IMG/VR virus record: IMGVR_UViG_3300021438_000016
Span: 1 to 61,337 of that record
Direction: 5' to 3' (one strand)
Origin: a virus
Lineage: Duplodnaviria > Caudoviricetes
Length of the DNA: 61,337 nucleotides
The translations under genes were made by a program, and so were the position numbers. Under the pieces are notes generated by a model, which worked only from the letters and a program-made list of their open reading frames with translations, was not told where the DNA came from and did not search any database. Shown piece after piece: positions 2,561-59,297 of this stretch (positions are counted from its first letter, which is position 1; every line of letters begins with the position of its first letter).

Positions 2561-2589
2561 AAGCCCCGGCTGCAACCGGGGCTTTTTTT
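2561..2589. terminator. Intrinsic terminator between convergent genes
   Basis: AAGCCCCGG-CTGCAA-CCGGGGCTT followed by a T run, between the primase stop and the 2068-aa gene stop. Confidence 0.8.
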
Positions 2590-5500
2590 ATTCCTCCGCG
2601 TATACCGGCACTTCGGCAAAACGCTGACGGAATGGCTTGGACAGGTAGATACCGGCCTTGGTTTCCGCGCTCTGTTTGGCGCGGGTGCGGGCCGAGGCGT
2701 TGATGACACTTTGAGTGATCGCCAGACCCTTCTCAGGGTTTACCAGAGAAAAATGGTTCATCTCATCTCTGATGTCAGCCATGGCTTCGTAATCCTGCCG
2801 TGCACGAGCGTTGAAATATTGATTCAACAAGCCTTGTCTACGGTCAAGAATCTGCTTCTCAATATCTTTTTGCCAAGCGTTGAGTTGATACTGACCGGCC
2901 AACCGCTGCGGAACAAAGCCAACCGCCTGAAGCGCCGCTTCGGTTAAAGATACGTCTTCAATAATCGGATCGCCTCGGGTTGTCAGTGCGCCCTCTTTAT
3001 TTAGCCGGATGGACTTGGCAATGTTGCGCATTCCAGCCATAGGGGTGACGCCTTCCAAGAACCGATACACGTCGCCTTGAGCCAGCTTGTCTACGCCCCG
3101 TGCGATCTGTAGGGCCATACCGGCAGAAGCACCAGCGGCCTCGGCAACGTAGTTCTTCAGATCATCTTCAGCGGAGGCAGTGTTCTTGCCGTCGCGCAGC
3201 CCCAAAAGCCCACCGATGAACGGCAGTTGTTTGGTACCCCCCAAAAGTGGGGAACTCGCATATCCCACTTTACTAGCAATATCACCGCCTAAATCGCCCA
3301 GCCAACCACGAGTAATGCGGTTAGCCATGGGCTGGCCCCACATGTCGGACAAGTAGTTGTAGAAGGCGAAGTCAAAATCGTACGGGTCATCCTTGTCATC
3401 AAGGATCAGATTCATCAGATCCCGAACGATGTAGTAGAACGGCATCCCCATGGTCCCGGCAAAAATACCGGACATACCCATCAGGCCCGTGAACTGGATG
3501 CGAGCTACCTTGCGAACCTCAGGGTCCACGCTGCTAAACATATCTTTGAACAGGCGCACATAGAGTGCAGCCATGTGCGCAGGGAACTTCTTGAACATGA
3601 AGATGACGCGCATCGCTGGGCTCAAAAAGATTTTTGGAGCCAGCCCATGTTGATAGTCTCCATGCGCTTTTGTAACCATCTCAGTAGACTTGCGGATCGC
3701 TTGGTCGTACTTCTCTTGGTTACTCATGCCGGTTTTGCCACTCAACCGCTGCTTCATCAGTTGGTAAGTTGCAAGCGCACCGGCCTCACGGTTGATCGCT
3801 TCAGCCCGCTGGAACATGATCGCGGAGTATTTGGTGAAGGCACGGACACCCTTACCAAACGCGGAAGTTTCACCCGATCCGTATTTAGCTATCGAACCAA
3901 AGTCGTGGCTAGGGTCTCCGGCATTCAAGATGCCTTGATCGCGGAACGAGAGGAACACGCGCTCCATCTCGGGGAGGGCCGCGATAGCTTCCGCGCGGGT
4001 CTTGCCTTTGGCAACAGCGGCGTCGATCTTAGCCTCGGCAGATTCCACCAACTTCTCGCCATACGTCTGCTGGCCCAATGAACCGCCAATGATCTTAGTC
4101 ATGGCGCTGAACAGGGTGTTCATGATTTTGACTTGGCCCAGCCCGTGGAACTCGCCAGCCAGCAGCGGGAACATCACAGTCGGTGTCTGCAACATATTTA
4201 CAAGAGCAGACGCAGGGTTGAAGCCCATGTAGTACGTGAAGCCAAGCCGGTTCACGTTGTTGGCGATCCTGTTCAGAGGATCATCCGAGCGGATTGTATC
4301 TACCCCATAGACAACCTTGGCGACGTGCGTGATGATGTCACTCATCTTCGTGTCGGGGTTGCTGGCGTTCTGTTTGCGGGCGCTGTCGATCTCATGCTCG
4401 ATCTGACCCTTATATGCAACTTGGGAGATCTGCGTGGCATAGATCGGAGCTTTATGGTCAAACGCAGCGAGGGTGTCCTCGATATAACCCGCCGTACCTT
4501 TACGCTCAAGACCAAACTGCCGAAGCATGGATGACTCTGGGTGCAGCAGCAGGGACGCCTGATACAGACGCTCCTTCATTTCTTCACGAGCCTCGCGGAT
4601 GCGGTCAGCCGTAGAGGTGGGGTCGTCCTTGTGGATAGGCAGTGCCTTGTCTACGTTGGCTTTGATCTCGTCAAAGAACTGATTGACCGGCCCGCTCTTG
4701 TAGCTGAACTTCCTGAAGTCCGTCTGTTTGAATGACTGGACGTGCGCTATGCCTTCTTTCTTTAGCTCATCAAGGCGCGTCTTCTGAGCGCCCAGACTGG
4801 TGTAGGACTCGGCAACGGGCTTGCCGTTCTTAGGGTTAAAGTACGTGACCCAATAGTCCCCTATGCGGACGAATGGCGTGTAGGCTTCGTTGAATTTTTT
4901 ATATGTCTCGTCTAGCCCAGACAGGATCTTGTCCGCTTTAACGGGGTCATCCTGATACTGGTCGTGCACAGACTGCTTTAGGGCTTCAAAGTATTCATTA
5001 CGAAACTGCCGGTACTGTCCAACAAGATCCGACGCTAGCTTCTGAAACTTAGGATGTAGCTTGTCGTACTCAGCCCGCAAAGAAACGTAATCAGCAACCG
5101 CCTCAGGGCCGCGAGTCTTGGCAAACTCTGGAGAGGGGTCTTTACTGCCGGTCACATCAATTGCAAGATCAGATGCGCGGTTAACGAAGGCGTCCATCGC
5201 CTTCTTACCGGCAGGATCAAACCTAGCGATTTCCAGAGCCCTGTTCATGAAGTCCGAACTGCGTTTGAGCAGGGTGTTTTTCATAGCCCCAGCTTTACGC
5301 AAGCTGTTCTCAATCTCGCCAATCTGATTGAACCCCATATCCCGCGCGTTGGCGGCAATACTAGACATGGGCAGCAAAGATAGGCCCCACCGCCCCGCTG
5401 CATCTGCTGCGTTTATAAAGAACTCGCTGTTCTTGGGAGCGTCAAGCAACTGCTGCATCGGAGCGACCATTGCCCGGTTCATCGCAACTTGAGGAAGTGC

Positions 5501-8500
5501 GGCTGCGGCTGTCGATACCGTGGAAGGGACTCTGACGTTTGCAGGTAGGTCGTCAGGGGCTAAAGGATAATTATTATTCGGGGGAGGAGCCCCAATCAAA
5601 AGAGATTTTGTAGCTTCAGCAGGGGTCTTGGTAGAAGGAGGAGCCCCTTCATGAACAAGCGCACTGTAGATGTCCAGCAGTTCCGTCAAGGCACTGGGAT
5701 CTTTAAGCCCTAAAATGTCGGCAATAGCTTGGACAAACTGGGTCCACAACGAGGTCTTGCTTTCATGAGGCAGCGCAGCGAGGAGGTACTGGAACTCGGG
5801 GTTGCTGAGTCCTTCAGCAATAAACTCTGATTCAGACTTCAGACCATAAGGAAGCTCTTTAATATCTTTGGTCTTGTAGACCGCCTCTGCTTTGGCAAGT
5901 ACGTCCTTGTATAACCTGCGCAAACGATTGACGGCCGCAAGTTGCTTACCGGGAAGCGGAGTCCTGATTGCTCTTTCCGTCAAGGCATGGACAATTTCGT
6001 GGGCGACCGTGTGCTCACTGCCAGCGTAGACAGAGTTGACAAATACCGTGTTTGATCCGCTATCAAACATCCCCGCAATAGTACCGGGACGGTACCCCTT
6101 GAAGGCTTCTTGCTCTCGCAGGATTCCATCGTCGAGCCTAACTTTTATCCGGTCTGAGGGCAGGAACCGCTGCGTTGCTTGGGCACGTTGGGCAATGTCC
6201 CTGATGACAGGGTTTTTGCTATCCAGCAGGGCTTTTATTACTGCGGGCATGTCGCCCTTCGTAACTGCATCTGCTAGCGCAGCATTATCTTCCGTAGCCA
6301 GCCACGTCTTGCTGTGGGCCTTGATACCTAACGCACGGGCAAAATCTTCCCTAGAAATAGGGAATTGATCGTTGACAGGTTCGTACGCCGCTTCTTGGGT
6401 TACTTGAAAAAACTCATCATCTTCTTCCGCGTTTCTTTTAGCCCTAGCTACTTCAGCATCCTTAGACTTTTGAACCTTTGCCAGATAGTCGAAAGTCTCC
6501 TGCGTCAGAGCTTTATTTGCGTGGGCGTCTTTCCATATTTTTTGAACATCTTTATCTAGCGCAGCCCATGCTGGCTCAGACTCAGCGCTTCTAAATTGGT
6601 TATCCCATTCATCTTGTGGCGAGCCTACTTCTACTTCGGCGGCAGGGGTAGGAGTCGTGGAGGCAGGGGTGGTTTCAAAATTTAACTCTTCAAACGGAAC
6701 ATAATTTTCTCCCGTTTTTCCTTGGAGGTCGTACCGAACCTTGACAAACTGTTTCCCATCCATAGTTTCGGGTTCACCGATAACCGTGACGGGAATGTCA
6801 GTGTCTTTGTTACTCCATATAGCTGCCCTGCCCTGCGTTACTGGAGCGGGCTGTGTTCCTTCTCCCACACCAGCTTGTTGAGGAGGCTCCCCAGCAAGTG
6901 CCACTCTAGGGGGTGCAGATGTTGCAACTCCTCCGGGGGGTAGTCCTCCTCCGGGTTCGCTAGGTACGCCAACGCTTGCTCCACTTGGGATATTGACATC
7001 TGTAGGAGGTGGTGTGTTTGGTTGGACATTTGGTTGCCCTTGTTGTTGCGCGGCTGCTGCGCGGGCTTTAAGTTCTAGCCTCGCTTTTCTCAGCCAGATT
7101 TTGACTTCAAGAGAAGGATCTTGTATTGCCTCTAACCTACTCTTTTCCGCGAGTATGTTATCGACCGGCCAACTTTCAAGTTTATAATCAAGTTTAGGCT
7201 GTTCCGTCTGAACCTGCTGCTGTGCTGCGGCACGATCTTGGGCCTCTGCTTCCCGCTGAGCCATGGCGGCTTCGGATGCGGCACGCTGTCTAGCTTGATA
7301 CTCAGCAATATCTCGCTCTTGCTGCTGCTTCCTAAGCTTATCCGCTTTCTGTAGCGCGTCGATACGTACTTGGTCGTTTTGCTGCTGTTGAGCTTGCTCT
7401 TGCTGCTGTTGAGCCTGTTGGTTCTGTTGCTGCTGTTGTTGAAGAGCAGCTTGTGCTGCGGCAGCTTGGGCCACTTGGTCAGCTTGTGCAGCCTCCTCAA
7501 GAGTGGCCGCGTTGGTTTGTTCTTCTAGAGACGGGTCAATTCTGGGGGCGGCAAATTTTACCGAAGCTCTTGATTCGGGGCTAAGCACCTTATTTTCAAC
7601 GAGCAGATTGAACTCGTCCTCGGTGATGCCCTCTTGGCTCTTTAGCTTAGCCATGGCCGCTGCAAGGTTCTCAGCGGGGCCGGGGCCAACAGACCCAGCT
7701 TGTTTGGTTTCGTCGAGGCTATATTCCGGTTGCTTCGCAGGGGTTTCCCGCATAGCTTGCACCACAGCACCCGGAGCACCAATACCCACACCACCAGCCG
7801 CGCCCTTGGCAGCAGCCAGCAACATCCGGTCTACGTTCTTAGGATCAGACAACCCACCCGGAGCGCCAGCAAGCTGCTCAGCAATAATGTCTAATGATTC
7901 TTGGACAGCTTCAGTTGTACTTTCAGTAGCAGCGGTTTTGCCAATTTCTTTAGCAAGCCGAAGCTTGAAGCTTTCTGGCACGATGGTGGATCTTGCGGCG
8001 AGTTCTTCTGCCACTTTAGCCTGCCCACGCAACCCCAACTGATTCATCAACCGAGCGGGGAGAATACCGTCTAGTGCAGCTTTAAGCGCACCGATGCCAA
8101 AAGCAAGTCCGGGTTCAAGTTTGTTGGTCTCTTCGTGGATACCCGCAAAAGTTTCAGGCGCGTTGAGGCCAAAGCTACCCGCACCGATACCTACGTTAAA
8201 GCCAGTCTCGCCAGCTTGAGATCTGGCAGCGGGAGCGAGTCGATTACCTAGGCGGGTAGCGTATGTTTCAGCCGCCTCTCCAGCCAAACCACGTTGTGCA
8301 GCAGCACGAGCAGCCGCTGCCTCAACCCCATACTTAGCAGCACCACGCGCAGCAAGAGAGCCAGCCCCTCCGGTCAGCGCCATCAAACCTACGTTGGGTA
8401 AATTCTCACCAACAGATTCCGCAATAAATCCTGCAACATCTGAAGGCCCACGGATACCGCTAAGTGACGAGTAGGAGGTCGGGTATCTCTCCTCAAGCTC

Positions 8501-8794
8501 TTGGCGCTTAGCTTTACCTTCCGCTAAATATCTATTAGCAGCTTCGTCGAACCCAAGCGCGGACGCGCCAAGACCCATAGCCTCACTGCCGGTAGCACCG
8601 AGCCCTCCGAGTCCCCGCTGAAGGGAGTTGCTAAATTGACGCCCAAGGGGAATATCTCTTGGGTCCGGGCGAGTTTCTAGGTCAAGTTGTTGTAAACGCC
8701 CCTGAAGTTTGGCAATCTGTGCGTATATAGACTCATCAGAATCCGTATCTGGAAAAGATACTGGCCCAATCTTCGGGATGTTTACAACCTTCAT
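2588..8794 (-). CDS. Large internal virion/ejection (polyvalent-type) protein with zincin-like metallopeptidase and PLxRFG-like region
   Basis: 2068 aa, last gene of the late block. HExxH (AHEIVH) plus downstream EFIAE, YTPFVRIGDY motif, Q-rich linker. Confidence 0.7.
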   Translation of the reverse strand: MKVVNIPKIGPVSFPDTDSDESIYAQIAKLQGRLQQLDLETRPDPRDIPLGRQFSNSLQRGLGGLGATGSEAMGLGASALGFDEAANRYLAEGKAKRQELEERYPTSYSSLSGIRGPSDVAGFIAESVGENLPNVGLMALTGGAGSLAARGAAKYGVEAAAARAAAQRGLAGEAAETYATRLGNRLAPAARSQAGETGFNVGIGAGSFGLNAPETFAGIHEETNKLEPGLAFGIGALKAALDGILPARLMNQLGLRGQAKVAEELAARSTIVPESFKLRLAKEIGKTAATESTTEAVQESLDIIAEQLAGAPGGLSDPKNVDRMLLAAAKGAAGGVGIGAPGAVVQAMRETPAKQPEYSLDETKQAGSVGPGPAENLAAAMAKLKSQEGITEDEFNLLVENKVLSPESRASVKFAAPRIDPSLEEQTNAATLEEAAQADQVAQAAAAQAALQQQQQQNQQAQQQQEQAQQQQNDQVRIDALQKADKLRKQQQERDIAEYQARQRAASEAAMAQREAEAQDRAAAQQQVQTEQPKLDYKLESWPVDNILAEKSRLEAIQDPSLEVKIWLRKARLELKARAAAAQQQGQPNVQPNTPPPTDVNIPSGASVGVPSEPGGGLPPGGVATSAPPRVALAGEPPQQAGVGEGTQPAPVTQGRAAIWSNKDTDIPVTVIGEPETMDGKQFVKVRYDLQGKTGENYVPFEELNFETTPASTTPTPAAEVEVGSPQDEWDNQFRSAESEPAWAALDKDVQKIWKDAHANKALTQETFDYLAKVQKSKDAEVARAKRNAEEDDEFFQVTQEAAYEPVNDQFPISREDFARALGIKAHSKTWLATEDNAALADAVTKGDMPAVIKALLDSKNPVIRDIAQRAQATQRFLPSDRIKVRLDDGILREQEAFKGYRPGTIAGMFDSGSNTVFVNSVYAGSEHTVAHEIVHALTERAIRTPLPGKQLAAVNRLRRLYKDVLAKAEAVYKTKDIKELPYGLKSESEFIAEGLSNPEFQYLLAALPHESKTSLWTQFVQAIADILGLKDPSALTELLDIYSALVHEGAPPSTKTPAEATKSLLIGAPPPNNNYPLAPDDLPANVRVPSTVSTAAAALPQVAMNRAMVAPMQQLLDAPKNSEFFINAADAAGRWGLSLLPMSSIAANARDMGFNQIGEIENSLRKAGAMKNTLLKRSSDFMNRALEIARFDPAGKKAMDAFVNRASDLAIDVTGSKDPSPEFAKTRGPEAVADYVSLRAEYDKLHPKFQKLASDLVGQYRQFRNEYFEALKQSVHDQYQDDPVKADKILSGLDETYKKFNEAYTPFVRIGDYWVTYFNPKNGKPVAESYTSLGAQKTRLDELKKEGIAHVQSFKQTDFRKFSYKSGPVNQFFDEIKANVDKALPIHKDDPTSTADRIREAREEMKERLYQASLLLHPESSMLRQFGLERKGTAGYIEDTLAAFDHKAPIYATQISQVAYKGQIEHEIDSARKQNASNPDTKMSDIITHVAKVVYGVDTIRSDDPLNRIANNVNRLGFTYYMGFNPASALVNMLQTPTVMFPLLAGEFHGLGQVKIMNTLFSAMTKIIGGSLGQQTYGEKLVESAEAKIDAAVAKGKTRAEAIAALPEMERVFLSFRDQGILNAGDPSHDFGSIAKYGSGETSAFGKGVRAFTKYSAIMFQRAEAINREAGALATYQLMKQRLSGKTGMSNQEKYDQAIRKSTEMVTKAHGDYQHGLAPKIFLSPAMRVIFMFKKFPAHMAALYVRLFKDMFSSVDPEVRKVARIQFTGLMGMSGIFAGTMGMPFYYIVRDLMNLILDDKDDPYDFDFAFYNYLSDMWGQPMANRITRGWLGDLGGDIASKVGYASSPLLGGTKQLPFIGGLLGLRDGKNTASAEDDLKNYVAEAAGASAGMALQIARGVDKLAQGDVYRFLEGVTPMAGMRNIAKSIRLNKEGALTTRGDPIIEDVSLTEAALQAVGFVPQRLAGQYQLNAWQKDIEKQILDRRQGLLNQYFNARARQDYEAMADIRDEMNHFSLVNPEKGLAITQSVINASARTRAKQSAETKAGIYLSKPFRQRFAEVPVYAEE

Positions 8795-43873: not shown

Positions 43874-43928
43874 TGTAAAGGGAAGAAGTTATGGCAAAAA
43901 TATATACCCCCCGGGGGGTGTGTTGGAA

Positions 43929-43957
43929 ATGATAAGGGGGTGGGTGTGCAATGTCAA
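43929..43957 (-). promoter_or_regulatory. Sigma70-like promoter facing the terminase/late block
   Basis: Minus strand TTGACA-17 bp-TATCAT. Confidence 0.65.
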
Positions 43958-44878: not shown

Positions 44879-44892
44879 CCTTCCCCACCCCT

Positions 44893-44925
44893 AAAAACCC
44901 CCGGAGAAATCCGGGGGTTTTTTTT
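44893..44925. terminator. Bidirectional intrinsic terminator
   Basis: AAAAACCCCCGGA-GAAA-TCCGGGGGTTTTTTTT. Confidence 0.9.
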
Positions 44926-44986
44926 CGCCCGTGATTCTGGTGAATCACCAGTTCCGCGCTCACTCTCGCGCGCTTGCGTAAAAGTT

Positions 44987-45913: not shown

Positions 45914-46387
45914 ATGGCACCCACTGCCAAGACCCACACCGTAACCGACCTCCCTCCAAACGTATCCAAGTACATCGACGTGCAGGAAAAAGACGCAAGC
46001 TCCCCCAAGTGGAGCGACCACTGGATCTGGACTGGCGTGTACCACTCGGACGGAATGCCACTCATCGGAAGCAAGACGGCCCATAGCGTTATCTACCGCT
46101 ACCTCAACCCTGAGATAGCAAAACTCGACGGGCGCATCCTGCGCCAGTGCGGAGATAAACGGTGTGTGAACCCTGCCCACATGCGGTACCCCATGCACGA
46201 GGGCCCGCTGAAGCTAAGCAAGTTAGACCCTGCCGTACGTAAGGCGTGGTTAGGCAGACCCTCAGGCTCCAGCGTGACCATCGCGCAGATAGAGAAGGAG
46301 CATGAAGAAAGTACCCCAGCTATCGTAAAAGTTTTACAAAGGATCGCAGAGGCGTTGGAGGAGGCAAACAAACTAGCAAGTAAGTAG
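45914..46387 (+). CDS. HNH-like protein, catalytic His apparently lost
   Basis: WIWTG...AHSVIY...ILRQCGDKRCVNPAHM. Confidence 0.7.
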   Translation: MAPTAKTHTVTDLPPNVSKYIDVQEKDASSPKWSDHWIWTGVYHSDGMPLIGSKTAHSVIYRYLNPEIAKLDGRILRQCGDKRCVNPAHMRYPMHEGPLKLSKLDPAVRKAWLGRPSGSSVTIAQIEKEHEESTPAIVKVLQRIAEALEEANKLASK

Positions 46388-46427
46388 GAAGGAGAGGAAG
46401 GGGTGGGAAGGACGTTCTTACCCCAAG

Positions 46428-46606
46428 TAAAAACTTGAGACTGCAAAGCAGTCCCTATGCCATAAAAACACAAAAATAACCCACCTAAAAACTTGACAAA
46501 GTATATTCTTTGTGGTATAATGACCGTAGGTCATGTGGTGTTGTTCAGCCGCATGACCGAGGGGCAATCCCGCCCCGACGTAGCGTAAAAATTTTACAGA
46601 AGAGGT
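46428..46606 (+). promoter_or_regulatory. Consensus sigma70 promoter cassette, copy 1
   Basis: TTGACA(46493)-17-TATAAT(46516) with extended TG; flanking hairpins; palindrome; AGAGG RBS. Confidence 0.85.
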
Positions 46607-46611
46607 GTGAG

Positions 46612-46713
46612 ATGAGTGCTGAGAGAGTGATGAACTGGGTAGCCGCGTTTTGTGTGGGCTACGTAATCGGCGTGTCAATCGCCGCGTTGGTAATCTTTTA
46701 TTGGAGAGGGTGA
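46612..46713 (+). CDS. Small single-TM protein (33 aa)
   Basis: MSAERVMNWVAAFCVGYVIGVSIAALVIFYWRG, GAGG RBS. Confidence 0.6.
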   Translation: MSAERVMNWVAAFCVGYVIGVSIAALVIFYWRG

Positions 46714-46714
46714 G

Positions 46715-46900
46715 ATGAGAATTAACGGTTGGTCAATCGTGGATTCCCCTGCGGGGGTGTCGGTGCGGTACGAGACGCGTGACCCGGAGATATGTTTCCG
46801 GGTTGCTAATGACATGATCATCATTACGATCTACAAAAACTATGAGGACGACACGCCTGTAACTTTGACTGTGCCACTAGAGATGGAAGGGAGCGAGTGA
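46715..46900 (+). CDS. Hypothetical protein
   Basis: 61 aa, GAGG RBS, tight packing. Confidence 0.6.
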   Translation: MRINGWSIVDSPAGVSVRYETRDPEICFRVANDMIIITIYKNYEDDTPVTLTVPLEMEGSE

Positions 46901-47091
46901 TGGACAAGAACGAGGAATACGCCATGAGGCGCGTGTTAATTGCAAAAGCCGTTTTGAAGATCGTGCAGGACATTCAGAAAAATCACTACGATGCCATCGA
47001 GACTGTGCTTGCTTGGCATTCAACCGAAGATCTTGAAGCGTTCATTGAGTACGACAACCCCCCAACGAGGACTAAAGAAAATGCTAGTTAA
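46897..47091 (+). CDS. Hypothetical protein
   Basis: 64 aa, GGAG RBS, GTGA overlap. Confidence 0.6.
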   Translation: MMDKNEEYAMRRVLIAKAVLKIVQDIQKNHYDAIETVLAWHSTEDLEAFIEYDNPPTRTKENAS

Positions 47092-47287
47092 AAACGACGA
47101 CGGACAGATGGCGATCCGCAAGGACTGGGGACCGACACTGATCGGGATCGGATACACACGCCCCGGCCCAAAGAACTGCGCGGTCATATCGTGGGACATG
47201 GAGAGGTTGCAGACCAGTCTCCTGCTACGGCACAAGGCACCGATGCGGACCCGCTTAGTAAAACTTTTACGGTTTGGGAGAGTGTGA
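47081..47287 (+). CDS. Hypothetical protein
   Basis: MLVKNDDGQ...DMERLQTSLL; fills the gap between coupled genes. Confidence 0.55.
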   Translation: MLVKNDDGQMAIRKDWGPTLIGIGYTRPGPKNCAVISWDMERLQTSLLLRHKAPMRTRLVKLLRFGRV

Positions 47288-47514
47288 TGGATGGGTACAC
47301 GGTAGAAGAGTTTGAGGCGATGATGAAGTTGATGGGTACGCAGGGGATCTACAACACGGCAGTTGCCAACGGGTGGGCAAAGCCCCCTCTTATCCTGACA
47401 CCGCAAGAAAGGATGATGCTGGTCAATCAGTATCGTGCAAACAAGGACATCCCTGCATATTTTTTCAACCTCGGAGATCAGGGCAAGTGGGGAGAAAAGC
47501 GTGGAGAAGAGTGA
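47284..47514 (+). CDS. GYTxEEF-family mini-protein 1
   Basis: MDGYTVEEFEAMMKLMG...LTPQERMMLVNQYR; GGAG RBS. Confidence 0.7.
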   Translation: MMDGYTVEEFEAMMKLMGTQGIYNTAVANGWAKPPLILTPQERMMLVNQYRANKDIPAYFFNLGDQGKWGEKRGEE

Positions 47515-47680
47515 AGAGGTCACCGGCTACACCGAAGAGGAGTTCAGGGCGATAGCCACGTTGATGGGGATAGGTACTTCTGTAAAGAACGTGTGGGTTG
47601 AGACGGAACCCATGACGCCTGAGTACAGGTTCAAGTTAATCCAAGCATATAGGAGGGTGTTAGAAAGTGGAGACTACTGA
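47501..47680 (+). CDS. GYTxEEF-family mini-protein 2
   Basis: GYTEEEFRAIATLMG...MTPEYRFKLIQAYR; GTG start with GGAG RBS. Confidence 0.7.
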   Translation: MEKSEEVTGYTEEEFRAIATLMGIGTSVKNVWVETEPMTPEYRFKLIQAYRRVLESGDY

Positions 47681-47861
47681 AGACAAGATGGAGGGATACA
47701 CGCACGAGGAGTTCTGCGCTCTGCTTGATCTGATGGGGGTGAACTACGTCACGCGCGACCCGAACGCACGGAGCCCAAGGGATCGGATGAAGATCATCAA
47801 CTACTTCCGCTCGCAGAAGCGAGCAGAGCGCAAGGTGCAGGAGTTCTTGCATGAAATCTGA
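47667..47861 (+). CDS. GYTxEEF-family mini-protein 3
   Basis: MEGYTHEEFCALLDLMG...SPRDRMKIINYFR. Confidence 0.7.
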   Translation: METTEDKMEGYTHEEFCALLDLMGVNYVTRDPNARSPRDRMKIINYFRSQKRAERKVQEFLHEI

Positions 47862-48033
47862 GGAGGAAGAGGAAGAGGAAGAGATGGAGGGCTACACGCT
47901 GGGTGAGTTCCACGCGTTGCTCCTGCTTTTGGTAGACATAGAACCACGGCACCATGAGTTCATTGCGAAGTATTTTGGAAATGACATGACTCCGAAGCAG
48001 AGGATGGACTACATCAAGGTGCTCATGCGCTAG
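47851..48033 (+). CDS. GYTxEEF-family mini-protein 4
   Basis: E8 run then MEGYTLGEFHALLLLL...MTPKQRMDYIKVLMR. Confidence 0.7.
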   Translation: MKSEEEEEEEEMEGYTLGEFHALLLLLVDIEPRHHEFIAKYFGNDMTPKQRMDYIKVLMR

Positions 48034-48122
48034 GCTTGAGTTGTGTTGATTTCGTTTTTGTTCGTACGTGGGCACACCCACTAGTTTGATTAACGTAAAA
48101 CTTTTACAGAGAGGACAAAGAA

Positions 48123-48914
48123 ATGAGAAGTGTCTTGCATAACCTGCCACGGATTCACAACTTCACATCGGCAGAGAGAACGTACAACAACATCGAGCCC
48201 ATCAGGGGGACGACGATCCGTCCGTTGGGTAATCGCAGAGCCAAGCACTATGCGATTGAGAAGATCAGCGACACGCAGTATGCGTGTACGTTGTACGGAC
48301 ACCGTGTAATAACCTACACAAAAGAGACCAAGCCGGGAGAGGGTACGCTGGGTGAGATTAGCCTGTGCGGGTACGACACACAGACCACGCGCGGGTTCAT
48401 CACGCGGGTGCTGGGTACAGACTGCTATTCACACAAGGGTAAAACCTACATTGAGATAGGCAAGAGAGTCACTGAGGTGGATGGGAAATACAAGGTCACG
48501 GGCGCGTACTACCTGCCGTCCAATCACACCTTGCAGATCCGTCACGCGCAAGTGTTCAACCCTGTGCCCGTGAAGAAAAAAGTCCTAGACCGTGAGGTTA
48601 CAAAAGAACTTCGGGACAAGTACAAGAATGAGATGGTCGCCGCCGAGTCCATGTTGCGTATGGGTACGCCGAGGTATAGCGAGGAGTACGACCCGCGCGA
48701 GAGGAAGGATTACTACAGTATGCAGTTCCTGACTGACCTCACGAGCGAGGAGATGAGTGAGTACCTGTGGTTGATCGCGGGGGACAGCTATGCCCACGAC
48801 CGCATTCAGCCTACGTACCGTTCATACATCGTGGACGCCCTGTATCACATTGCAGCGCTTGACGCTATAACTATTCACAAGGAGGTGGAGGTGCCCGTCG
48901 GACAACGGGCGTGA
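48123..48914 (+). CDS. Hypothetical early protein (263 aa)
   Basis: Long ORF with GAGG RBS. Confidence 0.75.
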   Translation: MRSVLHNLPRIHNFTSAERTYNNIEPIRGTTIRPLGNRRAKHYAIEKISDTQYACTLYGHRVITYTKETKPGEGTLGEISLCGYDTQTTRGFITRVLGTDCYSHKGKTYIEIGKRVTEVDGKYKVTGAYYLPSNHTLQIRHAQVFNPVPVKKKVLDREVTKELRDKYKNEMVAAESMLRMGTPRYSEEYDPRERKDYYSMQFLTDLTSEEMSEYLWLIAGDSYAHDRIQPTYRSYIVDALYHIAALDAITIHKEVEVPVGQRA

Positions 48915-48945
48915 GGGTGGGGCGCAACACCCCAAAAAGTTTCCC

Positions 48946-49116
48946 TAAAAACTTGGGTCTGCACAACGCAGACCGTACGCCAAAAAGTTCCCCTAAAAAC
49001 TTGACATTGTACAGAAAGTATGTTATAATGACCGTAGGTCATGTGGCATGAAGCACATGACCGGGGAAGTTTCCCCAGACCGTAACCGTAACCGTAAAAC
49101 TTTTACACACAGAGGA
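48946..49116 (+). promoter_or_regulatory. Consensus sigma70 promoter cassette, copy 2
   Basis: TTGACA(49001)-17-TATAAT(49024) with extended TG; same hairpin/palindrome layout as 46428-46606. Confidence 0.85.
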
Positions 49117-49126
49117 AGTTAGAGAA

Positions 49127-50203
49127 ATGGCTCAGATCAATCTTGCAAACAAGACCGTATCCCTTGCCGAAGCCGCCCGCCTGATCGAAGCGGTGGGCAC
49201 GAGCGTCACCATCATGCTTCAGGGCGAGCCGGGTATCGGTAAGTCCAGCATCCTGAAGATGATGAGCGACAAGACCCCGGACGGTGAGACTCGCATCAAG
49301 TCCTACATCGACGTGACTAACTTAGATCTCGGCGACATCGCTATGCCTTGGATCAACAAAGAGGACGGGTGCACACACTACGTACCCAACGCGCGGTTCG
49401 GGTTGCACACAGGCGCACCTGTGTTACTGATGCTCGACGAGTTGAGCAAGGGCCCCGACGCTATTCAGAACATGCTCCTGCCATTGTGTCTTGAGCGCCG
49501 CATGGGTGAGAAGAAGAATCACAAGAACACGATTATCTTTGCAACAGGCAACCTGTCCGGTGACGGGGTGGGCGACAAGCTCAAGCCCCATGCAATGAAT
49601 CGCTTCACGGTGGTGAAGGTTCGCAAGCCTACGTACAGCGAGTGGATCGAGTGGGGTATCGCCAACGGCATCGTGCCTGAGGTGCTCGCGGCAGTGAAGC
49701 AGTTCCCCGACTGCCTTGCATCGTATCAAGACGGTGACTCTCAGAAAGAGAACACCATGATCTATCACCCGACCCGCGCAGTGCAGGCGTTCGTATCCCC
49801 ACGGTCGCTAGAAAAAGCTAGTGACATCGTACGTATGCGTCGCGTGATCGGTGACGATCCGATGGAGGCCGCGCTGATCGGTACTGTGGGCGCGACGTTC
49901 GCACAGAAGCTGATGACGTTCCTGCACGTAGCAGATCAACTGCCAGCGCGTGAGAACTATCTTAACAACCCCGAGACTTGTCCCGTCCCTACCGACCCCA
50001 TGGCTCTGTGCATGTTGGTGTTTAGTGCAGTGACGTGGGTCGAGCGCAAGGACATGGACGCATGGATGAAGTACCTGCAACGCTTCAGCAAAGAGCATCA
50101 GGCTCTGTTCTGTACGGGTATCTGGAACTCACCCAAGCAGGGCATGGCGGCGACGTGCCGACCGTTCGTTGACTGGGCGCGGGTCAACAAGTACATCCTG
50201 TGA
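49127..50203 (+). CDS. MoxR/dynein-related AAA+ ATPase
   Basis: Walker A GEPGIGKS, Walker B LLMLDE, ATGN, NRF, SPRS. Confidence 0.9.
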   Translation: MAQINLANKTVSLAEAARLIEAVGTSVTIMLQGEPGIGKSSILKMMSDKTPDGETRIKSYIDVTNLDLGDIAMPWINKEDGCTHYVPNARFGLHTGAPVLLMLDELSKGPDAIQNMLLPLCLERRMGEKKNHKNTIIFATGNLSGDGVGDKLKPHAMNRFTVVKVRKPTYSEWIEWGIANGIVPEVLAAVKQFPDCLASYQDGDSQKENTMIYHPTRAVQAFVSPRSLEKASDIVRMRRVIGDDPMEAALIGTVGATFAQKLMTFLHVADQLPARENYLNNPETCPVPTDPMALCMLVFSAVTWVERKDMDAWMKYLQRFSKEHQALFCTGIWNSPKQGMAATCRPFVDWARVNKYIL

Positions 50204-53663: not shown

Positions 53664-53907
53664 GAGGGGCGCATACTATTTCTTCCCCGTCACGGGCGGC
53701 TACGGTCGCTCGGGCGTGCCTGACATAGTTGCGTGTCTGAATGGTAGGTTCGTAGGTATCGAGTGCAAGGCTGGCGACAACCAGCCTACCGCATTGCAAG
53801 TGAAGAATCTGAAGGCCATCCGTTCTGCGGGGGGCCTTTCTTTTTGTGTGAACAGCGTAAAAGTTTTACGCGAACAACTGGAGAGTGACCTTGAAGGATT
53901 GGAGTGA
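53614..53907 (+). CDS. VRR-NUC domain nuclease
   Basis: TPEGKVK...GVPDIVAC..GRFVGIECKAG...PTALQ. Confidence 0.9.
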   Translation: MTPEGKVKKEVVAYLNERGAYYFFPVTGGYGRSGVPDIVACLNGRFVGIECKAGDNQPTALQVKNLKAIRSAGGLSFCVNSVKVLREQLESDLEGLE

Positions 53908-56685: not shown

Positions 56686-56930
56686 CTTGGGAAGAATATA
56701 ACCAACTGTTTCACCGCGCTCATGTCAACGAGGTGGCGTTCAAACGAGTGATTGATTGCGACGAAGAGCTTCGTAAGATGGTTGAGATGGCGATTGAAGA
56801 TGAGCGGGAAGAGTGCGCCAAGGTGTGTGAAGCCGGGGTCGTACAGACAAACAACTGGGACGCCAGCGACTGGAACCAAGCCTGTGAAATCCGAGCCGCC
56901 GCTATCCGAAGAAGGGGAGAGAAGGCTTGA
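56682..56930 (+). CDS. Hypothetical protein
   Basis: EREECAKVCE...AAAIRRRGE. Confidence 0.65.
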   Translation: MTWEEYNQLFHRAHVNEVAFKRVIDCDEELRKMVEMAIEDEREECAKVCEAGVVQTNNWDASDWNQACEIRAAAIRRRGEKA

Positions 56931-57465: not shown

Positions 57466-59297
57466 TATTTGTCGATCTGGAAACCTACTACGACCGAGAC
57501 TTCAGCCTCTCCAAAATATCTACCGAAGAGTACATCCGTGACCCAAGGTTTGAAGTCATCGGCGTGGCGGTTAAAGTGGACGATGAGGAAACGCAGAGCT
57601 TCTCTGGCTCGCGTGCCGAAACGAAGGCTTGGCTACAACAGTTCGATTGGGGGAATTCCCTCGCCTGTGCTCACAACGCGCTTTTTGATGCGGCAATTAT
57701 GGCGTGGCACTTCGAGATTTATCCGAAGGCTTGGGCTGACACTATGTCGATGGCTCAAGCGTTATTGGGGACACGGTGCAAGGTCGGACTAGCGCACCTC
57801 GCTTCGTACTTTAATATAGGTACAAAAGGGACCGAGGTAATTAACGCATTGGGTAAGACGCGTAAAAGTTTTACACATGTCGAGATGGAGCGGTACATGT
57901 CGTACTGCCGAAATGACGTTGACCTGACCGCCGCGCTGTATACACGGATGTACAACTTCAGGGCCAACGATGACTTCACGTTCGAGGAGTTCCCTCTAAA
58001 AGAACTTAAGCTAATCGACCTCACTATCCGCATGTTTACTCAGCCCGTACTTGAAGTGGACGTGCCACTGCTGGAGGCGCACCTCATCAAGGTGAAAGAA
58101 GACAAGGCAAAGCTACTTGACGATGCGGGTATCAACCTTGAAGACGTGATGAGCAACCCGAAGTTTGCCGAGATACTACGCAGACTTGGTATTGATCCCC
58201 CCACCAAAATATCTCCCACTACTGGCAAACAGACCTACGCTTTTGCCAAGACGGACGAGGCGTTTAGGGCGTTGGCTGAGCATCCCGACCTGCGGGTGCA
58301 AGCGGTGGTAGCTGCGCGGCTTGGGGTGAAAACAACCATCGAGGAGTCTCGCACCGAGCGGTTCATCGGCATAGGCAAGCGGGGGCCACTGCCAGTCCCT
58401 CTTAAGTATTACGCTGCCCATACAGGCAGGTGGGGCGGGTCTGACAAACTTAATATGCAGAACCTACCTAGTAGGGGGAACGCATCCGCCCTGAAAAAGT
58501 CTCTCCGCGCACCGGCTGGGCACGTCATCATCTCATGCGACTCCTCGCAGATCGAGGCGCGGACCCTTGCGTGGCTGGCTGGACAGGAAGACTTGGTGAC
58601 TGCCTTCGCTAACGGCGAGGATGTCTACAAGATCATGGCGTCAAAAATTTATCATAAGCCGGTTACTGAAATAACCAAGGAGGAGCGGTTCTTCGGAAAA
58701 ACCGTGACCCTTGCATGCGGTTTTAGTATGGGGGCGGAGAAGTTTCATGGCATGTTGTCTCTCATACCGGGAGCAAAGATCAGCATGGGCGAGGCCGAGC
58801 GCATCATCGCCGTGTACCGGGGGGTCAACCCCAAGATCGTGCGTCTGTGGAAACTCGCAGACAGAGCCATACACTACATGGGTGCCTCCCAAGGCTGGAG
58901 GTTCGGTAGGGACGACCTGCTGGAGTTGGGGCCCAAGTGCATCATCCTGCCCAACACCATGAAGATCGAGTACCACGACCTGAGGAACACCAACATAGAT
59001 GGATGGAGGTACAGCACGCTGCGGGAGAGAAACGTAAAGCTATACGCGGGAAAATTGGTTGAAAATGTGGTGCAGGGGCTCGCGCGGATCATTGTGGGTG
59101 AGCAGATGCTGAGGATCGCTAAGAAGTACCGTCCCGTCTTGACAGTTCATGATGCAGTGTCTATAATTGTTCCAGAGCAGGAGTCTATCGAGGCGATGGC
59201 GTATGTTCAGGAATGTATGCGCTGGGTTCCTAAGTGGGCTAATGGTTTACCCGTAGATTGCGAAATAGGATGCGGCCCAACTTATGCAGATTCTTGA
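57462..59297 (+). CDS. polA: Family A DNA polymerase (3'-5' exonuclease plus polymerase)
   Basis: ExoI DLET, HNALFD, YCRNDV; TGRWGG, NMQNLP, motif A DSSQIEAR, motif C TVHD. Confidence 0.92.
   Translation: MIFVDLETYYDRDFSLSKISTEEYIRDPRFEVIGVAVKVDDEETQSFSGSRAETKAWLQQFDWGNSLACAHNALFDAAIMAWHFEIYPKAWADTMSMAQALLGTRCKVGLAHLASYFNIGTKGTEVINALGKTRKSFTHVEMERYMSYCRNDVDLTAALYTRMYNFRANDDFTFEEFPLKELKLIDLTIRMFTQPVLEVDVPLLEAHLIKVKEDKAKLLDDAGINLEDVMSNPKFAEILRRLGIDPPTKISPTTGKQTYAFAKTDEAFRALAEHPDLRVQAVVAARLGVKTTIEESRTERFIGIGKRGPLPVPLKYYAAHTGRWGGSDKLNMQNLPSRGNASALKKSLRAPAGHVIISCDSSQIEARTLAWLAGQEDLVTAFANGEDVYKIMASKIYHKPVTEITKEERFFGKTVTLACGFSMGAEKFHGMLSLIPGAKISMGEAERIIAVYRGVNPKIVRLWKLADRAIHYMGASQGWRFGRDDLLELGPKCIILPNTMKIEYHDLRNTNIDGWRYSTLRERNVKLYAGKLVENVVQGLARIIVGEQMLRIAKKYRPVLTVHDAVSIIVPEQESIEAMAYVQECMRWVPKWANGLPVDCEIGCGPTYADS

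Follow-up and report, generated by a model that had tools for sequence, protein, structure and literature searches.

PeSL (promoter-early stem-loop) cassettes have been described in T4-type phages (Arbiol et al. 2010, PMC2839356; Comeau et al. 2014, PMC4122927). As outlined in these two papers, such cassettes comprise a near-consensus sigma-70 promoter, an AT-rich upstream region and Gn-loop-Cn stem-loops. The stem-loops are described there as terminators or attenuators of upstream transcription, which may overlap the -10 box or fall between it and the start. Many copies occupy hyperplastic regions, as markers of genes gained and lost among near relatives. The ompA and papA mRNAs carry 5'-terminal stabiliser stem-loops (Emory, Bouvet and Belasco 1992, as cited in PMC3997798). 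According to the latter source, RppH and RNase E require single-stranded 5' ends, which explains how 5' structures stabilise a transcript. HK022 put RNA is a double hairpin of ~65 nt, reported to act without a phage protein (PMC8632103). N4-type hairpin promoters are presented in PMC13037366 as single-stranded promoter DNA that folds into a stem of 5-7 bp capped by a 3-nt GNA loop. The same text places mini-hairpin DNA motifs (GCGNAGC / GCGNNAGC) at the origins of phages G4, St-1 and alpha3, in RSF1010 ssiA (CCGAAGG) and in N4 early promoters.

Here we analyse two promoter cassettes of an uncultured freshwater phage. The window, i.e. the whole stretch of DNA analysed, spans 61,337 bp. An earlier note on this DNA had described a duplicated cassette with covarying hairpins, and had proposed a structured leader that controls elongation or mRNA stability of early operons, with a put-like antiterminator as the candidate. 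Our leading reading, which we hold tentatively, is that of a PeSL-like early promoter cassette: hairpins at the 5' terminus of its long early mRNAs would protect these from decay that depends on the 5' end.

Layout of the duplicated cassette

Two cassettes of ~180 bp each lie at 46428-46606 (A) and 48946-49116 (B). In both, an A-tract is followed by TTGACA-17-TGnTATAAT, an identical start region, two adjoining stems, the palindrome P13 and a ribosome site. Every element that the earlier note had assigned to the duplicated cassette is present at the position claimed for it.

46428..46437, plus strand: partial copy of the A-tract and start of the -35 box (TAAAAACTTG), upstream in cassette A
46437..46455, no strand: upstream hairpin of cassette A (GACTGC-AAA-GCAGTC core)
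46486..46521, plus strand: promoter PA, with UP-like A-tract TAAAAAC, -35 box TTGACA at 46493-46498, a 17-bp spacer ending in TGG and -10 box TATAAT at 46516-46521
46520..46534, no strand: H0 in A, inverted repeat ATGACC-GTA-GGTCAT, spanning -8 to +7 (predicted start A 46528)
46529..46558, plus strand: stem 1 of leader A, 11 bp with an 8-nt loop, from nt 2 of the predicted RNA onwards
46561..46576, plus strand: stem 2 of leader A, GGGGC-AATCCC-GCCCC
46585..46597, no strand: P13 palindrome GTAAAAATTTTAC of cassette A, followed by the ribosome site and ATG 46612 (33-aa ORF)
48946..48955, plus strand: TAAAAACTTG, upstream in cassette B
48956..48974, no strand: upstream hairpin of cassette B, GGTCTGC-ACAAC-GCAGACC
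48994..49029, plus strand: promoter PB, with A-tract, -35 box at 49001-49006, -10 box at 49024-49029 and TG extension
49028..49042, no strand: H0 in B, ATGACC-GTA-GGTCAT (predicted start A 49036)
49037..49062, plus strand: stem 1 of leader B, 9 bp with an 8-nt loop
49063..49076, plus strand: stem 2 of leader B, GGGGA-AGTT-TCCCC
49094..49106, no strand: P13 palindrome GTAAAACTTTTAC of cassette B, followed by the ribosome site and ATG 49127 (AAA/MoxR-like ATPase)

PA (46493-46521) and PB (49001-49029) both score 12/12 against the TTGACA-17-TATAAT consensus and carry the TG extension; we predict a very strong host-type promoter. The TAAAAAC A-tract lies 5' of the -35 box in nearly all cassette copies, relatives included. 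TAAAAACTTG has four exact occurrences in the 61,337-bp window (46428, 46486, 48946, 48994), none of them outside the two cassettes, and the cassette alignment has a mean column identity of 76% over 246 columns. The start region GACCGTAGGTCATGTGG is indeed the same letter for letter in A and B, as had been noted, but the block itself contains the inverted repeat H0, running from the last bases of the -10 box up to +7, which had been missed. Start sites were predicted at the A 7 nt past the -10 box (the usual spacing), i.e. 46528 in A and 49036 in B. A purine-rich ribosome site precedes ATG 46612 and ATG 49127. At a third early promoter (44103), a hairpin likewise lies a few bases into the leader. 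The whole layout was found again in related contigs, and the P13 excess, the folding z-scores and this recurrence show it to be more than chance. No RNA dataset is listed as carrying 46300-49300; 24 of the 24 rows are DNA.

By its large terminase, the window phage, which we take to be lytic, is a freshwater relative of the HTVC023P pelagiphage group; 023Pt_psg01, DSL-LC04 and HTVC027P are its closest isolates by this gene. A preprint ranks the HTVC023P-type phages first in abundance among the known groups of marine phages (bioRxiv 10.1101/2019.12.14.876532). None of the three closest isolates contains TTGACA-N16-18-TATAAT, and they hold 0-1 exact copies of P13 each, with no enrichment. Megablast and blastn gave no DNA similarity to isolated phages, and the window contains no tRNAs. 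PA heads a block of small take-over genes and PB heads the replication block, whose genes are similar to those of N4-like phages; the plus-strand block is more than 12 kb long. As no phage RNA polymerase was detected by Pfam, PHROGs or PDB sequence search, host RNA polymerase presumably transcribes the long operons, and the phage probably relies on it.

A conserved two-hairpin leader

We compiled 15 distinct leaders from ten related contigs or records (the window and nine contigs). The minimum-energy fold is alike in all 15, with one free 5' base, stem 1 and stem 2. Stem 1 starts at the second base of the predicted transcript in every leader and is 8-13 bp long. It is joined by 0-2 linker bases to stem 2, a Gn-loop-Cn hairpin that amounts to a simple G/C clamp, whose loops are free and which has no conserved internal loop. 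Together, the two hairpins cover 40-57 nt. RNA folding from the predicted start gave z = -5.0 for copy A and z = -3.1 for copy B.

In these rows, which were gathered with a pattern fixing part of the stem-1 5' arm, stem 1 pairs in 118 of 120 cells, 11 of them G-U. Two pairs are changed on both sides, and this covariation amounts to few independent events (three variants in closely related contigs). Its pairing or covariation score was reached by none of 500 shuffles, slid controls pair in 19-48% of cells, and RNAalifold recovers stem 1 unaided. What is a T-G wobble on the plus strand would be an A-C mismatch on the opposite one, which places the pairing in plus-strand RNA, and the compensatory changes and G-U pairs in stem 1 point to a plus-strand RNA structure. 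The selection on structure proposed in the earlier note is thus supported for the leader.

A covariance model of the leader matches exactly twice in the window and nowhere off these promoters in the 98 sources searched (620,528 bases, loci L104-L258 excepted). One weak match (L023, E = 0.05) was judged to be chance. Rfam, to which the earlier note had pointed, contributed no family: there was no match at the gathering score in the whole window. When the threshold was relaxed to E <= 10 for 46380-49160, the leaders still had no match, and three weak ones (L13 leader and two snoRNAs) all lie off the leaders and were judged to be chance.

Upstream hairpin and P13

The upstream hairpin, which had been put forward as covarying, shows its pairing swap in the two window copies only, and the other copy-B cassettes in the relatives are without the hairpin of copy B. 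In the relatives, the loop of upstream hairpin A alternates between AAA and TTT. The upstream hairpins of A and B are terminator-like on the minus strand only. A role as a conserved minus-strand terminator was rejected, because the T-run is missing in two of the contigs (L005 and L006).

P13 is a 13-bp palindrome with 11 exact copies against 0.17 expected, a count reached by none of 100 shuffles. Both cassettes contain it, as had been noted, but it is not specific to them. All copies lie within the early region, also ahead of early genes outside the cassettes. Its usual place is 13-15 nt 5' of a start codon, most copies falling in short gaps just before ribosome sites. When the central C lies on the sense strand, 49 of 51 such sites precede a start, a bias that could reflect a role at the RNA level. 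Together with the ribosome site, P13 appears to be a separate module linked to translation start. As a sigma-70 promoter P13 was rejected: it offers a -35-like TTTACA, but no -10 box follows 15-19 bp on. Scanning 30 ORFs, early ones and others, with Pfam and PHROGs for a P13-binding protein turned up no DNA-binding family, helix-turn-helix or otherwise. The first early protein and a 263-aa protein matched only unnamed viral clusters in the Atlas, and PDB sequence searches with three unknown proteins gave no match.

A candidate 5'-end protective leader

The leader is most likely of the RNA-protecting kind, a known general type, rather than an anti-termination RNA. In the proposed model, transcription would start at the A that closes the H0 loop. 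A single unpaired base would then lead the mRNA, ahead of the 8-13-bp stem 1, 0-2 linker bases and the Gn-loop-Cn stem 2. Such a base-paired 5' end would deny RppH and RNase E the single-stranded 5' terminus that they need, and the two long early transcripts from PA and PB would thereby live longer. Further 3', P13 and the ribosome site would act on their own at the start of translation.

The locking of stem 1 to +2 of the predicted RNA fits a function at the 5' end, the +2 position itself resting on the usual 7-nt spacing. A hairpin within ~1-2 nt of the 5' end, as in a stabiliser, would result from a start at the A 7 or 8 nt past the -10 box. The model assumes that the host has these decay enzymes. 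Stabilisation leaves three features unaccounted for. Stem 2 is always Gn/Cn; an ATGNNC arm upstream of +1 is the perfect complement of the stem-1 5' arm; and distant promoter modules have the H0 repeat but not stems 1 and 2. The earlier note's general inference of a structured leader is supported, with a possible action on mRNA stability; its put-like reading lacks support, for reasons given below.

Alternative readings

The cassette could instead be a PeSL-type insulator and recombination module, which we consider unlikely. Here, the upstream hairpin, H0 and stem 2 would attenuate or process read-through RNA, and the repeated cassette would be a gene-shuffling joint. The positions and the Gn-loop-Cn form match PeSL stem-loops as these are described (PMC2839356, PMC4122927), but stem 2 lies downstream of the start, outside the five described PeSL positions. 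H0 would be transcribed in read-through RNA only, yet stem 1 outcompetes H0 in the fold of that RNA, and no plus-strand T-run follows any of the three hairpins. The surroundings suit a shuffling joint: across five genomes, the first gene after PA falls into four different clusters, two of the five have an additional gene of 78-81 aa behind PB, and the upstream hairpin unit is tandemly duplicated in one contig (L069). Against this stands the number of copies, two per genome compared with about 50 in RB49 and phi1.

Two further readings turn on H0. Its 6-bp stem (window core CCGTAGG) is perfectly paired in 15/15 leaders, with 90/90 cells paired and no G-U, compared with the 11 G-U cells tolerated in stem 1. 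The loops GTA, GAA, GCTA and GTTA always read C-GNA-G or C-GNNA-G and, being closed by C-G, are of the stable mini-hairpin DNA class, which is also known from phage primase origins (PMC13037366). The repeat is kept in promoter modules that are without stems 1 and 2 (L012/L070, L034/L071/L105), and it recurs in consensus promoters of many unrelated phages. A looser scan found 13 of 23 lineages complementary at the H0 place, where 1 in 16 is expected, with GNA loops in eight of the 13. In an unbiased set of 135 consensus promoters, nine repeats with arms of at least 6 lie at this place, compared with 3.3 +/- 1.75 expected, and none of 200 shuffles reached nine.

The 5' arm of stem 1 doubles as an arm of H0, and we give a small chance to a double use of the +2 to +9 segment (6-8 nt). 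As DNA, it would form a mini-hairpin with the -10 end and discriminator, loosening sigma or flagging a primase/origin site; as RNA, it would be the 5' arm of the protective cap hairpin. If so, its DNA half, common to many unrelated uncultured phages, would be an undescribed promoter element. Slimmer still is the prospect that H0 acts as DNA with the RNA stem secondary. In this scenario, a C-GNA-G mini-hairpin in the unwound non-template strand would aid the exit of polymerase from a too-tight consensus promoter, or mark a primase/origin signal, and H0 would be a new element in bacterial promoter architecture. The strict pairing, the loop class and the survival of the repeat in distant modules speak for it. 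However, the predicted DNA hairpin reaches only about -4 kcal/mol, the loop-final A may just be the preferred start base, and independent changes are few. The literature that surfaced describes no hairpin mechanism of this kind at sigma-70 promoters; the RfaH ops hairpin was the only one to appear in it.

We regard the put-like processive antiterminator as improbable to much the same degree. A two-hairpin nascent RNA would bind host RNA polymerase and allow terminator read-through in the long early operons. Two adjoining hairpins directly follow strong early promoters in 15/15 leaders, and put needs no phage protein (PMC8632103), which would suit a phage with a long plus-strand block and no detected polymerase. 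The structured part is, however, only 40-57 nt compared with ~65 nt, stem 2 is a clamp without conserved internal loops, the leaders match no Rfam family, and stem 1 is tied to +2, at the very start of the RNA, a placement that put can do without. A terminator-like hairpin with a T-run at ~53.84 kb, ~4.8 kb downstream of PB, is conserved in the window, L005 and L006, but promoter-like sites at 56927, 59139 and 60087 could restart transcription past 53.8 kb. Between PA and PB there is no conserved intrinsic terminator, and terminator-like sites on the plus strand show no enrichment (20, compared with 18.6 expected). If true, this reading would, to our knowledge, take such RNA antiterminators beyond the lambdoid phages for the first time.

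A 2068-aa virion protein has a weak PHROG match to 'virion RNA polymerase' (E = 2.9e-12, residues 897-1052), but this covers profile positions 2078-2248 of 3406, which, from the N4 domain borders, we take to lie beyond the polymerase domain; Pfam finds only LPD39 in the protein, PDB sequence search finds no match, no other ORF is similar to RNA polymerase, and a virion RNA polymerase is thus unsupported. That H0 or P13 are N4-type hairpin promoters for such an enzyme is very hard to credit: the geometry (5-6-bp stem, 3-nt GNA loop) fits the N4 description in PMC13037366 and the replication genes resemble those of N4-like phages, but some H0 loops have 4 nt (GCTA, GTTA) and a perfect sigma-70 promoter lies on top of H0.

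Comparison with known systems

Returning to the protective leader as the preferred reading, the cassette would be a compact control module, in which a consensus promoter is combined with a cap hairpin at the 5' end and a palindrome at the translation start. Its promoter is a perfect sigma-70 consensus and should therefore work in E. coli. We take it to be a variant, itself new, of an already known general kind (PeSL-like / 5' protective leader).

L5 stoperators are arrays of short operators inside phage operons. P13 is similarly a short site with many copies confined to one transcription block; unlike them, it is symmetric, and no cognate DNA-binding protein was found among the early proteins scanned. 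H0 resembles the mini-hairpin DNA motifs, as listed in PMC13037366, in its GNA/GNNA loops closed by C-G, and the window CCGTAGG is close to the CCGAAGG of ssiA. It differs in its second pair, which is C-G or A-T where the motifs listed there have G-C, and in overlying a sigma-70 promoter. With HK022 put, as portrayed in the source cited above, the cassette shares a double hairpin in the nascent RNA after early promoters, in a phage without detected polymerase. In contrast to that account of put, the hairpins span 40-57 nt instead of ~65 nt, show no sequence or family match and are fixed at the predicted RNA 5' end, and the phage is not lambdoid.

The cassette resembles the ompA and papA stabilisers, as summarised in the article cited for them, in that a hairpin starts no more than one base from the predicted 5' end, with an unstructured stretch and the ribosome site after it. 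Here, however, there are two hairpins, the start is a predicted one, and the 5' arm doubles as one half of an inverted repeat in the DNA.

PeSL cassettes differ in several ways. There are two copies here compared with about 50, the phage is HTVC023P-like by large terminase and not a T4-like myovirus, and no plus-strand T-run follows any cassette hairpin. In addition, the Gn-Cn hairpin lies inside the transcript (about +30 to +50), together with a covarying 5'-terminal stem. In other respects the two agree. The near-consensus promoter TTGACA-N17-TATAAT and AT-rich upstream region of PeSL are both found here (12/12, TG, TAAAAAC). Built-in stem-loops are likewise present, with the upstream hairpin in the AT-rich region, H0 over the -10 box and start, and one stem-loop of the Gn-loop-Cn form. 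Finally, the cassette is repeated within one genome, and variable genes directly follow it in relatives.

Two promoter cassettes with a conserved leader fold

Two ~180-bp cassettes, A (46428-46606) and B (48946-49116), each carry a promoter followed by a leader, and the elements listed for them in an earlier note were all found in the sequence. The element TAAAAACTTG occurs in four exact copies in the window, every one within the two cassettes, and the mean column identity between A and B in an alignment is 76%. Their promoters, PA (46493-46521) and PB (49001-49029), match TTGACA-17-TATAAT at 12/12 positions and have a TG extension. As a class, promoter-like sites are not enriched in the window (13 versus 11.9 expected), so PA and PB are distinguished by quality rather than number. 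A third 12/12 match (59139-59167) lies within the DNA polymerase ORF, without TG extension, leader or the inverted repeat H0 described below, and may reflect chance or an internal promoter.

Three close loci were obtained from a protein query and more from DNA patterns modelled on the -10 box plus start region. The fetched loci gave 144 pattern matches, with the two free positions complementary in 27; among rows with a correctly spaced -35 box, some being one contig fetched twice, this was the case in 23/24. Alignment rows had to be complementary and to have P13, the 13-bp palindrome before the ribosome site and start codon, within 160 nt. Left out were 117 non-complementary matches (all without a -35 box except L116), L012/L070, L034/L071/L105, L038, L051, L056, L057 and L062, whose contig ends early. 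Fifteen distinct leaders remained for the alignment, drawn from the window and nine contigs.

Folded from the predicted start, leaders A and B form two adjoining hairpins (z = -5.0 and -3.1, respectively). One minimum-energy fold is common to all 15 leaders: one free 5' base leads into stem 1 (8-13 bp), and 0-2 linker nt join this to stem 2, which has 5-7 G-C-rich pairs and an apical C-G or A-U pair. Stem 1 is paired in 118/120 cells, and two of its pairs are altered on both sides (G-C/U-A/U-G and U-A/C-G). None of 500 shuffles reached its pairing or covariation score, slid controls pair in 19-48% of cells, and RNAalifold, unaided, returned the identical 8 pairs. Since the 11 G-U cells would read as A-C mismatches on the opposite strand, stem 1 is a feature of the plus-strand RNA. 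Searched against 98 sources, a covariance model of the leaders picked up two copies in each genome and no others. In one related contig (L077, 105-170), the stem 1 loop holds an extra GCCGC-GTA-GCGGC mini-hairpin, with a loop of the type seen in H0.

An inverted repeat over the -10 box and start site

The block that the earlier note called identical in both cassettes is present, and is itself an inverted repeat:

H0: last two bases of TATAAT to +7; inverted repeat ATGNNC-loop-GNNCAT

Pairing in H0 is Watson-Crick throughout (90/90 cells), with two pairs altered on both sides; complementarity was a retrieval filter, yet all P13-adjacent pattern matches were complementary before filtering. The 3' arm of H0 doubles as the 5' arm of stem 1, which makes the upstream arm of H0 nearly a copy of the 3' arm of stem 1. 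Because the upstream arm precedes +1, the RNA made from PA or PB is unable to form H0. A C-G pair closes every loop (GTA, GAA, GCTA or GTTA), which places H0 in a class of very stable DNA mini-hairpins that the consulted part of PMC13037366 describes at phage primase origins, RSF1010 ssiA and N4 promoters.

H0 is also present in promoter modules that have neither stems 1 and 2 nor P13 (L012/L070 and L034/L071/L105). In a looser viral scan, the H0 place was complementary in 23/39 rows or, by crudely clustered lineage, in 13/23 against a chance of 1/16, with GNA loops in 8 of the 13. In 135 consensus extended -10 promoters sampled without bias, enrichment of repeats at this place was modest (9 with arms of at least 6, versus 3.3 +/- 1.75 shuffled).

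In several unrelated viral contigs (L148, L154, L167, L169, L171, L175, L176 and others), consensus promoters carry inverted repeats of 6-9 bp, which take in at most four bases of the -10 box. In L169 and L171, a downstream copy of the upstream arm (exact 6-mer match) would form a 5'-terminal RNA hairpin; L154, L167 and L176 have apparent copies too, seen by eye only, with wobble pairs or an internal loop.

Genome layout, terminators and gene shuffling

The window comprises one entire IMG/VR virus record (61,337 bp), with completeness estimated at 97%. Structural and packaging genes (portal, large terminase, virion proteins and a 2068-aa polyvalent protein) occupy the minus strand at 2.6-43.9 kb. 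The plus strand carries the early and replication genes, which start at 44 kb, reach the end of the record and go on into 1-2.5 kb; they encode an HNH nuclease, an AAA/MoxR-like ATPase, a DUF2201/VWA protein, a family A DNA polymerase, a PD-(D/E)XK nuclease, a SNF2 helicase and a DUF927 primase. The large terminase places 023Pt_psg01, pelagiphages HTVC027P and HTVC023P, and lake phage DSL-LC04 nearest among isolates (50-58% identity); the datasets containing the cassette stretch as DNA are labelled freshwater metagenomes. Pfam, PHROGs and PDB sequence searches detected no RNA polymerase. The 2068-aa virion protein (2588-8794, minus strand), with a DarB-like C-terminal part and an LPD39 domain, is likely an ejected polyvalent protein; its short match to the N4 virion polymerase family presumably falls outside that family's polymerase domain.

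Strong, conserved plus-strand terminators follow the first early gene (~44.9 kb) and end the block (~2.58 kb). With the former behind it, the first early gene looks like a single-gene immediate-early unit driven from the 44103 promoter.

Two-way terminator: window ~44890-44928, L005 ~919, L006 ~2895, L069 ~1007; A-run, CCCCCGG...CCGGGGG, T-run

A terminator-like hairpin with T-run at ~53.84 kb (about 53815-53850) is conserved in the window, L005 and L006; it lies inside the end of an Hjc-like ORF, directly 5' of the P13 copy at 53857. Comparison of the window with its relatives found no conserved plus-strand terminator between PA and PB.

In five genomes, the genes that come first behind PA fall into four clusters, and downstream of PB comes either the ATPase gene itself or, before it, an extra small gene. 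Small tandem genes with a GYTxEEF...LMG motif (47287-48033) occur in 0-3 copies among relatives; three cluster by BLASTP and a fourth has the motif by eye only. On the minus strand at 43906-43957, a promoter-like TTGACA-17-TATCAT facing the terminase genes is immediately followed by terminator-like ACCCCCCGGGGGGT and a T-run. A promoter and terminator in this order are reminiscent of lambda PR'-tR' and would require antitermination for the late genes; the layout is not kept at that place in L006, L008 or L069.

P13 as a separate module

P13 occurs in 11 exact copies and one single-mismatch copy, all of them within 44.08-57.87 kb. A count over 12 loci gives 79 distinct sites (central base C in 51, G in 26, A and T in one each). 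A ribosome site and start lie within 45 nt in 63/79, most often at 13-15 nt, and 49 of the 51 central-C sites precede a start. At the 44103 promoter, one copy lies immediately 5' of the -35 box. Several more are located in ORF 3' ends, and in L005 and L069 the extra gene between PB and the ATPase gene is flanked by P13 on both sides. Placed at many early starts, at ORF 3' ends and around an inserted gene, P13 is thus a separate module, and may act as an operator for a putative dimeric protein, as an RNA-level signal for translation, or as both.

Comparison with known systems

Any function given here to the cassette, H0 or P13 is one that we infer. Fixed at the predicted RNA 5' end, stem 1 sits where a protective 5' hairpin would be expected. 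The same position does not fit the put-like antiterminator proposed in the earlier note, for which an Rfam search and comparison with the consulted part of the description of HK022 put RNA gave no positive evidence past the two-hairpin shape. As far as the consulted part of their description goes, the promoter-early stem-loop (PeSL) cassettes of T4-type phages agree with the present cassette in most respects, but differ in copy number and phage type, and in that the hairpins here lie within the transcript.
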